A stretch of DNA of 64,000 nucleotides, taken from Bacteroidota bacterium. GTDB taxonomy: Bacteria; Bacteroidota; Ignavibacteria; UBA10030. Position numbers and translations under genes: made by a program. The stretch lies in the NCBI GenBank assembly GCA_035286705.1, contig DATECW010000088.1, forward strand, positions 2,853 to 66,852, written 5' to 3'. How positions within the stretch are numbered: the first letter of the stretch is position 1; every line of letters starts with the position of its first letter. Shown piece after piece: positions 9,687 through 60,980 of the stretch. Under the pieces are notes generated by a model. The model was given only the letters and a program-made list of their open reading frames with translations. It made no database searches and was not told the DNA's origin.

Positions 9687-10313
9687 TCATTCACTGCCGT
9701 AGAAGTACCGTGCCACGTCATACCCCAGCCTGCTGATCAGCCCCTGCAGAAGTTGTCCATCGGTGTAAAACGTCCCCTGCTGCTCGCCGCCGCTGTAATA
9801 GTAGGTCGTCGTCGAGAAAGTGGATTCCACGTGCTTTGCCCAAACGACGGTCGAGGAATCGCAATCGACCAGCCTGACTGTGACGCTGCCTGATGCGATT
9901 CGGTTTGAATATGAGTTTGTGTATTTCACTTCGCCAACCGACGTAAACAGGTTTCCTGTCAGGAGATATCGACATTGAAGACCTTGCTTCAATCCATGAA
10001 TGGTATGCATATCGGGAATGCCGTTTACGTTGAGATTGTTCGCAAGCAGATAATTGCGTACAACCGTTGCAGGAATAATTTTCATATGCGCGGAGTGTTC
10101 AAGAAGGTTGACAATAACCTCATCGGACACCTGTCCACCCAAATTCGAAAGAACGCTTTCGGTTTCGAACGGCATGATCGCAATCGCCTCGCCGGGCTTG
10201 ATGATGACAGAGGGACTGATCTGTACCGTCCTCTTCGTAACCGAGCCTGTTCCGCAACCAGTCAGAAAGAACATAGCCAGGAACACCGTTGAAAGGTAAA
10301 TGATTGTTTTCAT
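9687..10313 (-). CDS. Lipoprotein, function unknown (LpoB/LPP20-like size class)
   Basis: MKTIIYLSTVFLAMFFLTGC lipoprotein signal. The rest is soluble, with no recognised motif. Start moved to the internal Met. Confidence 0.45.
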   Translation of the reverse strand: MKTIIYLSTVFLAMFFLTGCGTGSVTKRTVQISPSVIIKPGEAIAIMPFETESVLSNLGGQVSDEVIVNLLEHSAHMKIIPATVVRNYLLANNLNVNGIPDMHTIHGLKQGLQCRYLLTGNLFTSVGEVKYTNSYSNRIASGSVTVRLVDCDSSTVVWAKHVESTFSTTTYYYSGGEQQGTFYTDGQLLQGLISRLGYDVARYFYGSE

Positions 10314-31075: not shown

Positions 31076-31786
31076 TTATCCCTCTTCGTTCTGAAGTATC
31101 CGGTGATAGTCCAATCGGGCAACCCTCAGGCGCAGATTAAAAAGCCAGATGTAGAGCAGATTGAATCCGACAAGTCCAAGATAAAAAAGGACCCGCATGT
31201 TTGCCGCCATCATTTTCCCCTCGAACAACGGGCCCGAGCCTTCATCCCCTTTTGCCCCTGGATGAAGCCCTCCCACCATGCGCGGCATGACGAAAATAAA
31301 GAACGGTACGGTCAATCCCGCAATGATCGCGTACACAGCCGACAGTGCGGCCCTTTTTTCTTCCGAATCAATCGCCGAGCGCAGCGCAAAATAGGCGCCG
31401 TAGATCAGAAGAAGAACAAAAATTGATGTCTGTCGCGGATCCCAATTCCAGAAGGACCCCCAATTGAATTTCGCCCACAGCGCTCCCGTTACGGTCGCCA
31501 GAATGCAGAACAGGAGTCCCAATCCCGCAGACGTCACTGATTTCAGATCGTCGTCGATGTTTCTTTTTCGCAAATAACGAATGCCATAAAATGTGGAAAC
31601 AAGGAAGGCCAGTACCGTTGTCCATGCTGTGGGGACATGGAAGAAAATATTGCGTGCCTTTTGTTCCAGTCCCGGGATTTCAGGGAATTCCAGCCAGCTG
31701 GTCGGGGAAGGAACGAGAGGAATCGCCAGTCCTGCGACCAGGACAAATGTGATGATAAGAATGGATCCCAGTTTAACGAATTTCAT
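31076..31786 (-). CDS. ccmC: Heme exporter protein CcmC
   Basis: Six TM helices. WWD domain FNWGSFWNWDPRQTS. 236 aa. Confidence 0.85.
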   Translation of the reverse strand: MKFVKLGSILIITFVLVAGLAIPLVPSPTSWLEFPEIPGLEQKARNIFFHVPTAWTTVLAFLVSTFYGIRYLRKRNIDDDLKSVTSAGLGLLFCILATVTGALWAKFNWGSFWNWDPRQTSIFVLLLIYGAYFALRSAIDSEEKRAALSAVYAIIAGLTVPFFIFVMPRMVGGLHPGAKGDEGSGPLFEGKMMAANMRVLFYLGLVGFNLLYIWLFNLRLRVARLDYHRILQNEEG

Positions 31787-31834
31787 CGAGATTTGAGAAG
31801 TGGATATTTACAGGTGCAGCCTACCGCATTCAAT

Positions 31835-31980
31835 TTCACACCTCTGTGGCACTCTGTGTAATGTTTCTTTCCCTTGGGTTATTTCACAGAGAGACACAGA
31901 GCAAGAAAAGAGAGTTCCACAGAGAAAAGCTTCCCTCTGTGTCCCTCTGTGACTTCTCTGTGACACACTGTGTAATATTC
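31835..31980. repeat. Intergenic palindromic repeat element (CACAGAG x3 / CTCTGTG x3 arms plus a CTCTGTG..CTGTGTAAT copy) inserted between ccmB and ccmC
   Basis: 31885-31925 is cacagagagacacagagcaagaaaagagagttccacagag. Its reverse-complement-like arm at 31935-31976 is ctctgtgtccctctgtgacttctctgtgacacactgtgtaat. A further cctctgtggcactctgtgtaatg sits at 31841-31863. The ctctgtgtcc core recurs at 45406. Confidence 0.6.
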
Positions 31981-31989
31981 TCTTTGAAA

Positions 31990-32661
31990 CTAATCCTTCC
32001 AAACATAGTCGAAGAGCAGGTACGAACCCGCGGTGATGACCATAACATAGGAGATTAACACCAGAAAATCTACAGCAGCTTCACCGAATCGCTCACCATC
32101 GAGTGCTTTCGCGGTCGCATTCATCACGCTCATCAGCAGAATGATCAAGATCGGAAACGAAAGAACCGGATATAAAGTTCCTCGTGTGTTCGCTTTTGCG
32201 ATGATCGCCGCGATGATGGTTGCAGCCGATGCCAATCCCAGGCTTCCAAGAACGACAGTCACGAGGAAAACATCGAGCGACTGGATCGAGAAGCCCGGAA
32301 AAGCCACTGTATACACAATGGTAACACCCAGGACAAGTGACAGGGTCAACAGGACGTTGAACAGCAGTTTCCCAAAATATACGGAGGATGGAATCGCCAC
32401 CAATTGAAGCGTAAGCGCGGTGCCACGTTCTTCTTCACTCACAAAGGCTCTCGAAAGTCCGGACATAGCCGAAAAGAAAACAACAACCCAGAACATTCCC
32501 GCGAGCACCGTACTCGAGGGCTGGTCTCCTCGCAAAGCAAAGAGGATGATTGAAACCGTGGTGAGAACAAACATGAGGAGGGCATTCAGAGCATACCGCG
32601 TCCGAAGCTCGGACTGGACGTCCTTTGTCACAATGGCATAAATGCTCTTCCACGTATTCAT
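31990..32661 (-). CDS. ccmB: Heme exporter permease CcmB
   Basis: 223 aa, six TM helices, positioned between ccmA and ccmC. Confidence 0.75.
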   Translation of the reverse strand: MNTWKSIYAIVTKDVQSELRTRYALNALLMFVLTTVSIILFALRGDQPSSTVLAGMFWVVVFFSAMSGLSRAFVSEEERGTALTLQLVAIPSSVYFGKLLFNVLLTLSLVLGVTIVYTVAFPGFSIQSLDVFLVTVVLGSLGLASAATIIAAIIAKANTRGTLYPVLSFPILIILLMSVMNATAKALDGERFGEAAVDFLVLISYVMVITAGSYLLFDYVWKD

Positions 32662-32679: not shown

Positions 32680-33306
32680 TCATACTCCGACATGAATTCT
32701 TTTCTTGCACCAGGATGCCTCCCGCTCATCGTTCGTGGCTATGATTGTGAGAGTGTCCGTCTGCAGGCTTTGCACCGTATCATGCACGACCCTGCATCCA
32801 TCTTCATCCAGGTTCGCCGTCGGCTCATCGAGCATGACGATGGAGGGGGCATGCGCTAATGCCACAATGTACTTCAATCGCTGCTTCATTCCGGATGAGA
32901 ATGTCCGCACAACGTCATCGCGTCGTTCCCAGAGTCCATAGGTTCTGAAAATCTTCTCGATATCCGCGGGCGCGGGCGTCGAGTTGTTTCGTATCCTTAA
33001 CAAGATCAGGAGATTTTCGAGCGCGGTAAATTCATCATAAAGCTGGAGGTACGGGGACACAAGCCCTATCGTCGGCCGCAACCCGTCCAGATCGACGGCT
33101 GCTCCTGAGAGCTCGTATTCCACTTTTCCTTTTGTGGGACTCAGCAATCCCGCCAGGACCTTGATCAATGTGGATTTTCCGGATCCGTTCTTTCCCGTGA
33201 CGGCAAGCGATTCGCCGGAGCTGAGGGAAAAAGTGATGTCTTTCAACACCGTTCTCCTGTTGAAATTCTTCCCTATTCCTGCTGCACGAATTGTTACGAG
33301 GTTCAT
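32680..33306 (-). CDS. ccmA: Heme ABC exporter ATP-binding protein CcmA
   Basis: Walker A GKNGSGKST, signature FSSGMKQRL, Walker B IVMLDEPTANLD. About 208 aa. Start moved to MNLVTI. Confidence 0.8.
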   Translation of the reverse strand: MNLVTIRAAGIGKNFNRRTVLKDITFSLSSGESLAVTGKNGSGKSTLIKVLAGLLSPTKGKVEYELSGAAVDLDGLRPTIGLVSPYLQLYDEFTALENLLILLRIRNNSTPAPADIEKIFRTYGLWERRDDVVRTFSSGMKQRLKYIVALAHAPSIVMLDEPTANLDEDGCRVVHDTVQSLQTDTLTIIATNDEREASWCKKRIHVGV

Positions 33307-34991
33307 CGGATGACCGCCAGTTTCCATCGGTATTCCCGCTGTCCCGTTTTCAGATAGATGAAATGAACTCCTGATGACACTTTTCCGGCAAAGTCCCTTG
33401 TGGGAACCGTCACAGTCGCCTGCCCGAAAACACTTGCCACGGGATACGAACCGGAGAACACGAGATCGAATGTTGCAGTCAGAATGAATACGCTGGCGGG
33501 GCCGGACAAAGAGCCTTCAGCCGGCAGAGCAAGAGTTGTCGCATCCTGAATTCTCAACGGATTAGGGGAAGGAACCGGCCTGCCGTTCAGACCCGATTCG
33601 GAGGCCGTTCCTATATAAAGAGTCCGCCAATCTTCTGCAGGTTCCCCCTCAAATCCCATGACAAACCCATTCAAGAGTCTCTGGATTGCTCCGTTGGTCT
33701 CAGACCGAGAGAGAGTCAGTCGGATACCCGAACGCTGGCCGGGGTTTGTGTAAGCCATCTCATGATTGACATTCGAAACCTCGGCAAGAATTGTATCTCC
33801 CGGGACCGTAAAGGCATAGTATTGTACTGACAAGGGATACGCCTCACCCTGGATGAACATTGACGATCCGCTGAACGATGCAGTCACGTTCGGCTGAATC
33901 ATCGGGAACAGATGCCCTTCTTCGTAGTATCGCAACGTGTCTGCGCGCTGGCCTGTGAACATGTTCCACGCCGAAAATTCGGCAAATGCCGTTCTGAGGC
34001 TGCTACCGGCATTCTTAAGCACCACATCCATACTCTTCAAGGCGGGCTGCAAACGCATTTCCTCCCAAATCCGCCTGATGACGTCTTTTCCGAATCGCTT
34101 CTCCAGGTATTGGTTCCAGATCGATCGTTCATACCCTGAGTTTGCAAGCGTGTACGTAGCAAATGCATGGGATTGCCCCGACGGGTCTTTGAAGCTCTGA
34201 AGAAATCGCGGAAGATCAAAGTAGTAGTCATTGATATCATCGTAGACCACTTCCTCAATCCACACAGAAGTCAATTCATAGAAAAAAAAGTCGTTGTCCG
34301 GAACCGTGTTCCAGATACCGTATGATCCAATTTGAAGGGCATGGTGAAACTCATGAGCAGCAGTGACGCGCGCGCCGTCTAATCCTTTCGTCCTTTGAGC
34401 AAAAAAATCATTGTCGATTTCTATGAATGTGACGTAACGATCCCGAACTCCGCTCTCGAGCTGTGTTTCCCCATCCCAGGATGTGAATCCGAACAGGTCG
34501 GACGGCTGATCCCGGATGTACACGTCGTACTCAGCTCCGCCGCCGCTCCCTCCGTCCGAAGGCGGCGGGCTGAAACCCAGAAGTTCAATCTCCACATTCC
34601 AGCATTGATCGAAGATCGCTCCCACGGAATCGACATATTCCTCGTGCGAATTGAGAACAGGATTCAACGGAGTACCGGCGAGCATCCGCGGAAGGTTCAC
34701 GCCTGATGTATCGTAGTGAATTCGGAATCGCCCCGACGGACTGAGCCGGCTTGTGTGCAGGTTCGGCCTCAGGAGTATTTGTCCAATTGTCGTTCTGACA
34801 TTCTCCGGGAATTCCTGAATCCTCCGGCGGGCTTCAAAGATGAGCGTTGTCCCGCATTTCCCGCCGAAATCCTCCCTTTTCCCAATCTGGACTTCACGAA
34901 GGATTTCCCGAAGAACCTCCATCGGTTTCTGCTGCGCCTCCGCTGCAACGGCCATGATCAAAGAGAGTACGGCAAAGACCGCAACCCGCAT
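33303..34991 (-). CDS. Secreted putative zinc metallopeptidase with T9SS C-terminal sorting domain
   Basis: Signal peptide MRVAVFAVLSLIMAVAAEAQQ. HExxH motif in AAHEFHHALQIGSYG. C-terminal SGVHFIYLKTGQREYRWKLAVIR matches the Por_Secre_tail pattern. Start moved to the internal Met. Confidence 0.6.
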   Translation of the reverse strand: MRVAVFAVLSLIMAVAAEAQQKPMEVLREILREVQIGKREDFGGKCGTTLIFEARRRIQEFPENVRTTIGQILLRPNLHTSRLSPSGRFRIHYDTSGVNLPRMLAGTPLNPVLNSHEEYVDSVGAIFDQCWNVEIELLGFSPPPSDGGSGGGAEYDVYIRDQPSDLFGFTSWDGETQLESGVRDRYVTFIEIDNDFFAQRTKGLDGARVTAAHEFHHALQIGSYGIWNTVPDNDFFFYELTSVWIEEVVYDDINDYYFDLPRFLQSFKDPSGQSHAFATYTLANSGYERSIWNQYLEKRFGKDVIRRIWEEMRLQPALKSMDVVLKNAGSSLRTAFAEFSAWNMFTGQRADTLRYYEEGHLFPMIQPNVTASFSGSSMFIQGEAYPLSVQYYAFTVPGDTILAEVSNVNHEMAYTNPGQRSGIRLTLSRSETNGAIQRLLNGFVMGFEGEPAEDWRTLYIGTASESGLNGRPVPSPNPLRIQDATTLALPAEGSLSGPASVFILTATFDLVFSGSYPVASVFGQATVTVPTRDFAGKVSSGVHFIYLKTGQREYRWKLAVIR

Positions 34992-43754: not shown

Positions 43755-44360
43755 CTAGAACCGCACCTGCGGCGCATCCTGGGCACCGCTGACGGCCTGG
43801 AAGTACTGAGCTTCCTTGAAATTGCCAAAACCTGCCACCAGGGAGCCGGGGAACCGACGAATTGTTGTATTAAATTCCTGCACCGTCTCATTGAACCGAT
43901 TCCGTGCGACAGCGATCCTGTTCTCTGTTCCTTCCAGCTGCGATTGGAGCTGTAAGAAATTCTCGTTGGACTTGAGTATGGGATAGTTTTCAACAACAGC
44001 CAGAAGGCGTGACAACGCGGAACTCAGACCATCCTGTGCACTTTGGAACCGTGCAAAGGCTTCCGGATTGTTCAGAACTTCAGGAGTGACCGTGATCTGA
44101 CCGACCCGAGCCCTCGCACTCACCACGTTGTCGAGAACCTCTCTTTCCTGCTTCGCAAATCCCTTAACGGTTTCAACAAGATTGGGAATCAGATCGTAAC
44201 GACGCTGGTACTGGCTTTCCACCTGTCCCCAGCTCGATTTCACTCCCTCATCGAGCCCTACAATCTTGTTATAGGTCGAAACAGCCCAAACAATAAGAAT
44301 CGAGACGACAAACAAAATTCCGATAAGTGCCACGATACCAATTGAGAGTTTTCGGTTCAT
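43755..44360 (-). CDS. lemA: LemA family protein
   Basis: N-terminal TM helix, then the LemA signature (WGQVESQYQRRYDLIPNLVETVKGFAKQEREVL...). Start moved to MNRKLS. Confidence 0.8.
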   Translation of the reverse strand: MNRKLSIGIVALIGILFVVSILIVWAVSTYNKIVGLDEGVKSSWGQVESQYQRRYDLIPNLVETVKGFAKQEREVLDNVVSARARVGQITVTPEVLNNPEAFARFQSAQDGLSSALSRLLAVVENYPILKSNENFLQLQSQLEGTENRIAVARNRFNETVQEFNTTIRRFPGSLVAGFGNFKEAQYFQAVSGAQDAPQVRF

Positions 44361-45334
44361 TCTTCTGCTCCTGGTGCAAGTATGTTTTTCATAAAATTCC
44401 GTGAACGTTCCTCGACAAGCTGCAGTACTTTGCGCTTCTGCGCACCAACGGCGAGCACTGGTTGCCACCGTTTCACGGTGACCGGAAGAAGCTGCACGAC
44501 GACGCTGTCGCCCAAGGTTACTTTCAAAACCCCCGTTTCATAGGTATGTTGAGTATTCCCTCCAAAAACAAAGTTACCAAGGGAATACGCAATGTGTTTT
44601 CCCTGATATTGTTCAATGCCCTGAAGGACGTGCGGATGATGGCCCACGATCAAGTCGGCACCAGCCTCTATGACACGGTGTGCGAGGCGGACTTGCCATT
44701 GAACCGGCTCGGGAGCCCGCTCTGTTCCCCAATGAAAATTGACGACAACAAAATCCGCCTTTTTCCGAAGAGACCGCACATCCTCAATGATGTACCTCTC
44801 AAATCGGGGTGCAAATCCCGGGCGGGTCGCTGTTGCAGCATACTCTCCCCCGCCATAGTATCCAAGAAAGCCGATCCTGCGTCCTTTTGTTTCCAGAATC
44901 ACGGGCGTTCGGGCACCGCGAAGGTCCTTTCCTATTCCCACAAACTTCACTCCCGCAGAATCGAGGTTTCTCATAGTTTCTTCGATCCCCTGCAACCCAT
45001 AGTCAAACACATGGTTATTGGCGCAATTAACAAGAGAAACGCCGCCGCTCTTCAACGTTCCGATCGCAGCAGGATTCATCTTGAAATTGTATTTCTTCTC
45101 GACCTTTTCAACCCCCGTTGTGACCGGATGCTCCAGATTCACCATGAAAATATCGCAATCCCCGCCCGGCTTCCACAACCCGAACACATAGGACGTGTCC
45201 ATGCCAATGTGACGTTCCACATTGTCCGAGAGAGTCACATCTCCGGCAAAGAGGATCGTCACTGGTTCGGGGGTCTGCGCCGCGAGAGTGCAGATCCCCG
45301 TTGAAATTATTACAGCAATGAAGAGACGGCGCAT
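44357..45334 (-). CDS. capA: CapA/PGA_cap family protein (paralog 2)
   Basis: Signal peptide. FAGDVTL...VNLEHPVT...CANNHVFDYG...VNFHWGTE...GHHPHVLQG motifs. Confidence 0.7.
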   Translation of the reverse strand: MRRLFIAVIISTGICTLAAQTPEPVTILFAGDVTLSDNVERHIGMDTSYVFGLWKPGGDCDIFMVNLEHPVTTGVEKVEKKYNFKMNPAAIGTLKSGGVSLVNCANNHVFDYGLQGIEETMRNLDSAGVKFVGIGKDLRGARTPVILETKGRRIGFLGYYGGGEYAATATRPGFAPRFERYIIEDVRSLRKKADFVVVNFHWGTERAPEPVQWQVRLAHRVIEAGADLIVGHHPHVLQGIEQYQGKHIAYSLGNFVFGGNTQHTYETGVLKVTLGDSVVVQLLPVTVKRWQPVLAVGAQKRKVLQLVEERSRNFMKNILAPGAEE

Positions 45335-45402: not shown

Positions 45403-45466
45403 GAGCACTTGGCTTTTCTCTGTGTCCGCTGTGGTAACATTGTTCACCACAGAGCGCACAGAGAAG
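45403..45466. repeat. Second copy of the CTCTGTG/CACAGAG palindromic element, in the panD upstream region
   Basis: ttctctgtgtccgctgtggtaacattgttcaccacagagcgcacagagaag is an imperfect inverted repeat, with arms about 20 bp. It shares ctctgtgtcc and cacagag..cacagag with the ccmB-ccmC element. Confidence 0.55.
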
Positions 45467-45477
45467 GCACGCCCGCC

Positions 45478-45504
45478 CCCGCCCGACCAAGTCGTTCGGG
45501 CGGG
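45478..45504. other. Perfect 9-bp GC-rich stem-loop (cccgcccga / ccaagtcgt / tcgggcggg)
   Basis: Read directly. 9-bp stem, 9-nt loop, no downstream T-run. Located between the capA stop and the panD start. Confidence 0.5.
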
Positions 45505-45683
45505 CGACCGAACGCATCTGACCTCCGCGCGGTCATTCGGGCGGGGAGGGCACGGAGAATTCAGAGTCACACCGCTGCGCGTAGCTTGCTTTCGTTTGTC
45601 ACTCTCCCTTTTTCCCCTGGAGAAGGTATTTTGCATTTGAACCAATCCCACAGTATGTTTGTTCAAAGATACGACCGAATCTC

Positions 45684-60893: not shown

Positions 60894-60980
60894 GGAAGGG
60901 TGCGAGAGTGGTTGAATCGGCCGGTCTCGAAAACCGGTGTGGCCTCCGGGCTACCGTGGGTTCGAATCCCACCCCTTCCG
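60894..60980 (+). tRNA. tRNA-Ser (anticodon CGA)
   Basis: Acceptor stem GGAAGGG/CCCTTCC with discriminator G. Anticodon stem CCGGT/ACCGG with loop CTCGAAA. Long variable arm (GTGTGGCCTCCGGGCTACC). T-arm GTGGGTTCGAATCCCAC. Confidence 0.85.

Follow-up and report, generated by a model that had tools for sequence, protein, structure and literature searches.

The spacer between ccmB and ccmC in the 64,000 nt stretch of Ignavibacteria DNA analysed here (the window, to which all positions refer) is best explained as a lineage-specific insertion of two tandem, non-coding, intergenic palindromic repeats of REP/BIME/REPIN-like character, one of which is internally deleted. We put the probability of this reading at roughly 60 %. 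The arms of these repeats are arrays of the heptamer CACAGAG, and the same arm design recurs in other bacterial phyla and in phages.

The ccm genes lie on the minus strand in the order ccmA, ccmB, ccmC, ccmD_alt, ccmE and ccmF. In the ORF listing ccmA occupies 32680-33327 (-) and is followed by ccmB (31990-32661, -; 223 aa) and ccmC (31076-31786, -; 236 aa). A PF03379 (CcmB) record covers the 223 aa ccmB at the equivalent position of strain contigs with identical CcmC, and the ATG assigned to ccmC is the one that directly follows the ccmB stop in relatives. Read in the sense direction, the spacer begins with a unique flank of 13 nt from the ccmB TAG stop to the first repeat (31977-31989, -; TTTCAAAGAGAAT). 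That repeat, element A, is a 96 nt imperfect palindrome with the heads of its arms pointing outwards (31881-31976, -; ATTACACAGTG...CTCTGTGAAAT). Its 5' arm, purine-rich on the mRNA strand (31935-31976, -), consists of ATTA and CACAGTG followed by three CACAGAG units, with the spacers GTGT, AAGT and GGA. A predicted apical loop region (31925-31934, -; GGAAGCTTTT) separates this arm from the pyrimidine-rich 3' arm (31881-31924, -), which is made up of CTCTGTG, a degenerate CTCTCTT unit, two CTCTGTG units and AAAT. An 18 nt linker (31863-31880, -; AACCCAAGGGAAAGAAAC) joins element A to a 30 nt remnant of a second repeat, element B, delimited by alignment with the strain contigs (31833-31862, -; ATTACACAGAGTGCCACAGAGG followed by TGTGAAAT), and a unique flank of 46 nt (31787-31832, -) leads up to the ccmC ATG.

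The first-pass annotation had reported three CACAGAG repeats facing three CTCTGTG repeats in this spacer, with an additional copy, and the sequence is as described: on the plus strand, CACAGAG at 31885, 31895 and 31918 faces CTCTGTG at 31935, 31945 and 31956, CACTGTGTAAT lies beyond the three CTCTGTG at 31966-31976, and a further heptamer stretch, CTCTGTGGCACTCTGTGTAAT, is found at 31842-31862. Its description of the whole as one palindrome of about 200 bp has to be given up; the 203 nt resolve into an element, a linker, a remnant and two unique flanks. Exact CTCTGTG or CACAGAG occurs 11 times on the two strands of the window, against 7.5 expected, and all 11 occurrences fall in two loci, eight of them within 121 nt of the ccm spacer (31842-31962; Poisson P of about 4e-20) and three upstream of panD (45418-45463). 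A scan of the window for clusters of the general unit CRCRRAG returned only the ccm and panD clusters, against 0.06 expected. A promoter scan of the ccm spacer detected no sigma-70-like promoter. Rfam, searched at gathering and at permissive thresholds, gave no family match for either locus or for a high-density phage contig, and its output for the repeats comprised only sub-threshold generic hairpins (miRNA-precursor); the window's sole match at the gathering threshold is a tRNA gene at 60894-60980 (+).

In relatives with CcmC proteins 83, 77 and 76 % identical to that of the window, ccmC starts only 1-2 nt after the ccmB stop, and the ccm spacer is therefore a lineage-specific insertion. In a closer relative (91 %; L517) the two genes are separated by an unrelated spacer of ~40 nt. 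This spacer, at about 10010-10050, carries GTCGAGT-type direct repeats and no CACAGAG arrays; ccmC of this relative has been called as a 255 aa protein, its start having been extended upstream by the gene caller. Homologous copies are present at other sites. A full-length homologue of element A, 84 % identical, follows a UvrD-like helicase gene at a distance of 22 nt (L530). In the 83 % relative (L520) the ccmA-ccmB gap, 243 nt long compared with 18 nt in the window, holds a homologue in opposite orientation that consists of pyrimidine arm, linker and purine arm. Absence at orthologous sites together with homologous copies elsewhere bears out the earlier suggestion of a dispersed REP/MITE-like family, as do the strain-level deletion and unit gain described below and the occurrence of members far beyond the source genome. 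Some 10 kb of flanking sequence on each side of the window contained no further arrays, leaving two loci in ~84 kb, and the family is therefore sparse in the source genome. No target-site duplication was evident around element A, around the L530 copy or around 12 elements of other genomes, although the pre-insertion site of the ccm spacer has diverged so strongly that the call is uncertain there.

The insert also varies between strains. Nine metagenome contigs with identical CcmC, from groundwater or sediment Ignavibacteriales, carry two alleles of the gap, of 203 nt and of 255-256 nt; metagenomes with the locus include ERZ272548xx and JGI 33000251xx-33000253xx. Element A is identical in all of them. 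Element B is full length in other strains of the population, at ~85 nt in the long allele (sense, ATTACACAGAG ... TGTGAAAT) and ~95 nt in contig L557, which has one additional 10 nt heptamer unit; the window allele has lost the central 52-53 nt of element B, leaving the 30 nt remnant. Elements A and B are diverged duplicates whose pyrimidine arms align end to end. The strain indels (52, 53 and 10 nt) are not multiples of three, and the spacer is therefore non-coding. The long hairpin that the first-pass annotation expected in the ccm mRNA, with a possible modulation of ccmC-F expression, is supported at the level of prediction: calculated folds of the sense RNA reach -61.3 kcal/mol for the short allele (z = -2.4) and -82.9 kcal/mol for the long allele (z = -2.5), z-scores that are modest. 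Across 18 elements the sense and antisense RNAs folded equally stably, giving no sign of selection on the RNA strand.

The second locus of the window lies between panD and a divergently oriented PGA_cap gene, where a related imperfect palindrome is indeed present at 45416-45466 (TTCTCTGTGTCCGCTGTGG-N-CCACAGAGCGCACAGAGAA; no strand assigned). It is composed of TTCTCTGTG-TCC-GCTGTGG, then TAACATTGTTCAC, then CACAGAG-CG-CACAGAG-AA, so that the array heads face each other (CTCTGTG-TCC-GCTGTGG TAAC...TTCAC CACAGAG-CG-CACAGAG), a heads-in or type B arrangement. As DNA it has a predicted fold of -16.7 kcal/mol (z = -3.8). To call it a second copy of the ccm element, as had been proposed, is too strong: BLAST revealed no similarity between the two beyond the heptamer arrays, and the order of the arms is opposite. 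The gap is 349 nt long in all 10 of the strain contigs returned and the array is fixed, while the orthologous gap of a 90 % relative, of 207 or 562 nt, is without it; the panD array is therefore a recent, lineage-specific gain. A separate G+C-rich palindrome (CCCCGCCCGA ... GTCGTTCGGGCGGG ... GTCATTCGGGCGGGG) sits beside the heptamer palindrome at 45470-45546, and a related G+C-rich element is found in the orthologous gap of 90-91 % relatives (L597, L598). The panD gap thus seems to be a hot spot for differing palindromic inserts. The neighbouring PGA_cap (CapA-like) gene, at 44357-45334 (-), has a paralogue at about 36-38 kb, upstream of the ccm cluster, where it is part of a conserved gene order (YfiO, 4HBT, DUF6055, ccm) that relatives have in common with the window.

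Outside the source genome, we searched IMG/VR for a hairpin pattern of two CACAGAG followed, after 5-35 nt, by CTCTGTG. The pattern matched 68 stretches, 32 of them full palindromes, compared with nine stretches and no full palindrome for each of two composition-matched control heptamers, so that CACAGAG hairpins are ~7 times commoner than the controls; the variant CGCAAAG gave 27 stretches. A three-unit pattern had at least 120 matches in IMG/VR and matched at least 120 GTDB species genomes. The GTDB matches listed fall in the Planctomycetota, Acidobacteriota, Chloroflexota, Bacteroidota, Myxococcota (including Sorangium So0157-2), Cyanobacteriota (including Nostoc), Verrucomicrobiota, Desulfobacterota and the Alpha-, Beta- and Gammaproteobacteria, with single matches elsewhere; among the matches listed, the arm design extends to more than 12 bacterial phyla and to phage contigs. 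An inverted partner was found within 300 nt of 24-51 % of the CACAGAG arrays and of 0-2 % of the control arrays, and 84-95 % of the CACAGAG arrays have exactly three units. BLAST located the element, unannotated, in Bacteroides finegoldii, in human-gut phage contigs and in plasmids of Nostoc and of Anabaena cylindrica PCC 7122. Carriers with complete genomes include a member of the Pyrinomonadaceae (OY969475.1) and Sorangium (NC_021658.1). In the structural module of one phage contig (L017) up to 10 clusters occur within 14 kb, in nearly every gene gap. Searches of open-access full text by sequence string and by concept returned no account of such a family, which is apparently undescribed to date; an older or paywalled account is possible.

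Two considerations govern how these counts should be read. Plain tandem arrays of arbitrary heptamers are common, so raw counts of tri-heptamer arrays prove little and were rejected as proof of specificity, which rests instead on the inverted-pair architecture and on the matched hairpin-pattern controls; one control heptamer, CAGACAG, was a poor choice in that it overlaps (CAGA)n microsatellites. A de novo search of 1.87 Mb of unrelated phage DNA for inverted arrays of spaced heptamers found five, none of the CRCRRAG type. Secondly, of the 210 permutations of this base composition, CACAGAG/CTCTGTG ranks with the rarest, both in the window and in the GTDB, IMG/VR and unrelated control loci. The family is built on a word that ordinary prokaryotic DNA avoids. 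We considered whether the heptamer is avoided elsewhere as a toxic or recognized site and rejected this, CACAGAG ranking with the rarest words in the control loci too; its absence from the rest of the window is for that reason not special.

The consensus of 224 unique arms is an A/T-rich flank, a head TT(C/A)AC, then CACAGAG-R(R)-CACAGAG-RR-CACAGAG and AAA, and an arm usually faces its complement. The flanks are mildly T-rich only. The elements of the window belong to a low-G+C, Bacteroidota-type subfamily with the head ATTA, four units and spacers of 3-4 nt. Over the family as a whole the unit period within arrays is 8-11 nt. The arms are polar, and elements occur either heads-out (type A, median loop 30 nt) or heads-in (type B, 18-51 nt between the heads) at a ratio of ~8:1 in the GTDB sample, type B being common among the Bacteroidota-type matches. 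In 26 unique elements with three units in each arm, facing spacers are of equal length in 94 % of cases compared with 50 % after shuffling, whereas their positions are Watson-Crick complementary in 43 % compared with 35 % after shuffling, no better than chance. Hairpin register and heptamer identity are thus preserved, whereas spacer pairing is not. The same three-unit inverted architecture occurs in the same genomes with CGCAAAG, CGCGGAG, CACGAAG and CGCAGAG (L026, L035, L087, L121, L131, L136 and L144) and with CACGGAG, and the general unit is therefore CRCRRAG. In some cases another heptamer type symmetrically encloses a CACAGAG element or is enclosed by it; three of these loci (L026, L035 and L131) are nested or tandem composites, with composite units of 149 nt repeated in tandem in L035.

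The elements are intergenic, lying at a median of 24 nt past the upstream stop codon and 43 nt ahead of the next start. They occur in co-directional, convergent and divergent gaps, most copies in co-directional gaps, in proportions near those usually assumed for bacteria (the baseline being an assumption), and heads-in and heads-out elements show no bias in context. An all-against-all BLASTP comparison of 743 ORFs from 120 loci, with ~8 kb around each array, revealed no recurring gene near the arrays; in particular, no transposase or RAYT-like gene was seen near the arrays of the 120 genomes, the loci retrieved contained no insertion sequence that shares these ends and could be the parent, and widely spaced arms enclosed ordinary genes and no transposase.

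These features invite comparison with known repeat systems. REP/BIME repeats of the GTAG and CGTC superfamilies are tagged at one end with the conserved tetranucleotide of that name (Di Nocera et al. 2013, PMC3733652). Like REP/BIME sequences, those of Enterobacteria included, the elements described here are short, extragenic, imperfect palindromes that vary between strains and are unannotated in genome records (PMC3733652). They likewise occur as singletons, as head-head or tail-tail dimers and as tandem mosaic clusters, inside operons or at gene ends; dimers and mosaics are represented by the tandem A and B elements of the ccm spacer, by the type A and type B pairs and by the composites of L026, L035 and L131. 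In contrast, their heads are TT[C/A]AC or ATTAC, and the absence of a GTAG or CGTC tag means that they do not belong to a tagged-REP superfamily. Each arm is an array of spaced heptamers and not a unique palindrome of 20-40 nt and, unlike lineage-specific REP sequences, the heptamer is common to several phyla; an association with a RAYT was not seen at the 120 loci. What defines REPINs is a cognate Y1 transposase (RAYT), encoded by a single-copy gene that the repeats flank (Bertels and Rainey 2011, PMC3116915). The present elements share with them the two inverted arms with a short spacer that can form a long hairpin (PMC3116915), the presence of single arms beside doublets, and a non-autonomous nature with no coding capacity. 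They differ in that no cognate transposase was seen at the 120 loci, and in that they span phyla and phages, whereas REPIN families are inherited vertically at the level of the genus.

The resemblance to MITEs such as the Correia/NEMIS elements of Neisseria extends to a length of ~100-150 nt, inverted-repeat ends, an intergenic and co-transcribed position, and presence or absence among relatives. Our elements have inverted-repeat ends, measure 85-96 nt, lack coding capacity, and are present or absent at orthologous sites while having copies at unrelated sites. Unlike those of MITEs, however, their inverted repeats are internally repetitive, and since neither a target-site duplication nor a parent insertion sequence was found, they are not proven MITEs.

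Heptamer repeats have precedents of their own. The cyanobacterial STRR sequences are a heptanucleotide repeat family. TAACTGA forms intergenic direct heptamer repeats in Beggiatoaceae, Cyanobacteria and Bacteroidetes, for which a role as a post-transcriptional signal has been proposed and candidate binders have been discussed (PMC4679880). The CACAGAG arrays resemble both in having a 7 nt unit and an intergenic position near stop or start codons, and in their sporadic distribution over phyla, and TAACTGA-type and CACAGAG arrays co-occur in the same gaps (L115, L017). STRR and TAACTGA repeats are contiguous and direct, whereas the units here are 1-4 nt apart, usually number three and are typically paired in inverted orientation. 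The omega repressor of plasmid pSM19035 binds contiguous heptad operators at the promoters of a few plasmid genes. Its operators are likewise arrays of a 7 bp unit, direct or inverted, but the spacing is variable in our arrays and no regulon is seen. Resemblances to DnaA boxes, boxA, RSS/Transib heptamers, the end sites of Mu and Tn7, the CRESS nonanucleotide TAATATTAC, the IS608 target TTAC and the StyLTI site CAGAG were considered and dropped.

In the reading we prefer, each arm comprises two to four CACAGAG units separated by 1-4 variable purines, with a conserved head and an A-rich tail, and faces a CTCTGTG array. We infer that such elements spread to new intergenic sites through a factor acting in trans, and they evolve further through tandem duplication, the formation of tandem and mosaic clusters, slippage with gain or loss of units and deletion of the hairpin centre. 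For the polycistronic ccm transcript, the predictions give a single long imperfect hairpin with the short allele and two with the long one; the folded region would start ~14 nt past the ccmB stop and take the place of the stop-start junction of relatives. By analogy with the REP elements of Escherichia coli, the insert likely costs the translational coupling of ccmB and ccmC, and the hairpin may stabilize or process the mRNA. For the ccm operon the finding is a modest one, a recent and variable insert that breaks stop-start coupling. Its net effect is probably near neutral, because strains carry different alleles.

Several observations weigh against this interpretation. Neither a transposase or RAYT-like gene nor any other recurrent gene was found near the 120 arrays, target-site duplications are not evident, and the source genome offers only the two loci in ~84 kb. 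The conservation of the heptamer across phyla, combined with free spacers and loops, is not what would be expected of an element for which any stable hairpin suffices, or of a decaying transposon. The equal stability of sense and antisense folds gives no evidence of selection on the RNA strand, and the z-scores are modest.

A first alternative, which we consider unlikely, is that the arrays are bound by an abundant protein with affinity for single-stranded RNA or DNA, for instance of the cold-shock-domain, RRM or S1 type, and serve as a post-transcriptional signal behind the stop codon, the hairpin being secondary to binding or competing with it. Conserved heptamers with free spacers are consistent with such sites, a unit spacing of 8-11 nt suits independent binding modules, and arrays often start 1-20 nt past the upstream stop codon. 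In co-directional gaps, 34 unpaired arrays have CACAGAG on the mRNA strand, against 16 in the other orientation (binomial p = 0.015), but this count includes related, non-independent phage loci, and the general purine loading of mRNA may explain part of the bias. CTTAAAA and (C/T)AACTGA arrays (L115) precede start codons in the same gaps, and the TAACTGA repeats with their candidate binders provide a precedent (PMC4679880). Against this, most arrays stand in inverted pairs that would sequester one another, the protein is a candidate only, and close relatives lack the arrays of both window loci.

It is also conceivable, if rather improbable, that the arrays are double-stranded DNA operators or iterons, each heptamer contacted by one subunit of a regulator, a nucleoid protein or a domesticated transposase, and that ccm and panD share a regulatory input, as the first-pass annotation had considered. 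The conserved heptamer, the defined polarity of the arms, the existence of heads-out, heads-in and single arms and the location of the panD site in a divergent promoter region all point in this direction. Cooperative binders typically use arrays with about three units, for instance the omega repressor at its heptad operators. Spacings of 8, 9, 10 and 11 bp, however, are ill-suited to rigid cooperative binding, and operators and iterons have a fixed spacing and a defined gene set, whereas here the spacing varies, no neighbour family or functional theme recurs among the 120 arrays of other genomes, and gap types give no indication of promoter enrichment. The ccm copy is inside an operon, 13 nt past a stop codon. 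Close relatives that keep the same genes and are missing both arrays likewise speak against a shared regulatory site.

We judge it very unlikely that the element serves to terminate or attenuate transcription within the ccm operon, acting in both directions by virtue of being palindromic. Stable hairpins are predicted, some members lie between convergent genes, as in B. finegoldii, and E. coli BIMEs can attenuate transcription. A terminator scan of the ccm spacer, however, found no intrinsic terminator with a G+C-rich stem and a U-tract, the T-richness of the flanks is slight, the element comes between ccmB and ccmC, which encode subunits of one heme exporter and are coupled in relatives, and copies lie mostly in co-directional and in some cases divergent gaps. 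Mechanical ORFs of 50-70 aa cross the ccm spacer, but strain indels that break all reading frames refute a small protein-coding gene. Chance low complexity and an assembly artefact are refuted by the probability of the clustering and by recurrence of the sequence in nine independent assemblies from several projects.

The wider significance of the arrays lies in their distribution. REP, BIME and REPIN repeats are normally lineage-specific. Here one and the same heptamer and head, arms of about three units and mirrored spacing are found in Ignavibacteria, Bacteroides, Planctomycetes, Acidobacteria, Chloroflexi, Nostoc, Sorangium and the structural operons of phages. The heptamer is kept across phyla and phages while spacers and loops drift, which implies a sequence-specific reader or writer of CACAGAG itself; we know of no factor that reads or writes this word. 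As a tentative proposal that could easily prove wrong, we suggest that CRCRRAG arrays, of which CACAGAG is the commonest form, are a pan-bacterial cis-element read sequence-specifically by a widespread trans-acting factor, which may be a single-strand binder with a cold-shock domain or RRM, or a domesticated HUH or other transposase. If this were so, one intergenic word would be common to more than 12 phyla and to phages, marking gene ends and controlling the fate of mRNA, the ccm insert being a single example. Several carriers are culturable (B. finegoldii, A. cylindrica PCC 7122, Sorangium cellulosum So0157-2 and Labilibaculum euxinus), so the question is directly testable.

Some further features of array-bearing gaps and of the source genome were recorded. 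Contiguous heptamer arrays just before the next start codon occur in the same gaps as CACAGAG arrays in L115 (Isosphaeraceae), in L222, L240, L287 and their relatives, and in L017, L044 and L045, with the units (C/T)AACTGA, CTTAAAA, AATAACC, CAGTATC and AATAGTC. The first of these, from L115, matches the TAACTGA repeats described for Beggiatoaceae. In several phage contigs the CACAGAG array has the stop codon as its head, reading TAA-C-CACAGAG. Finally, the source genome encodes a 66 aa cold-shock-domain protein, a member of one candidate class of heptamer binders, ~7 kb past the end of the window (L650, 3028-3228), where its gene adjoins that of a family-B DNA polymerase.
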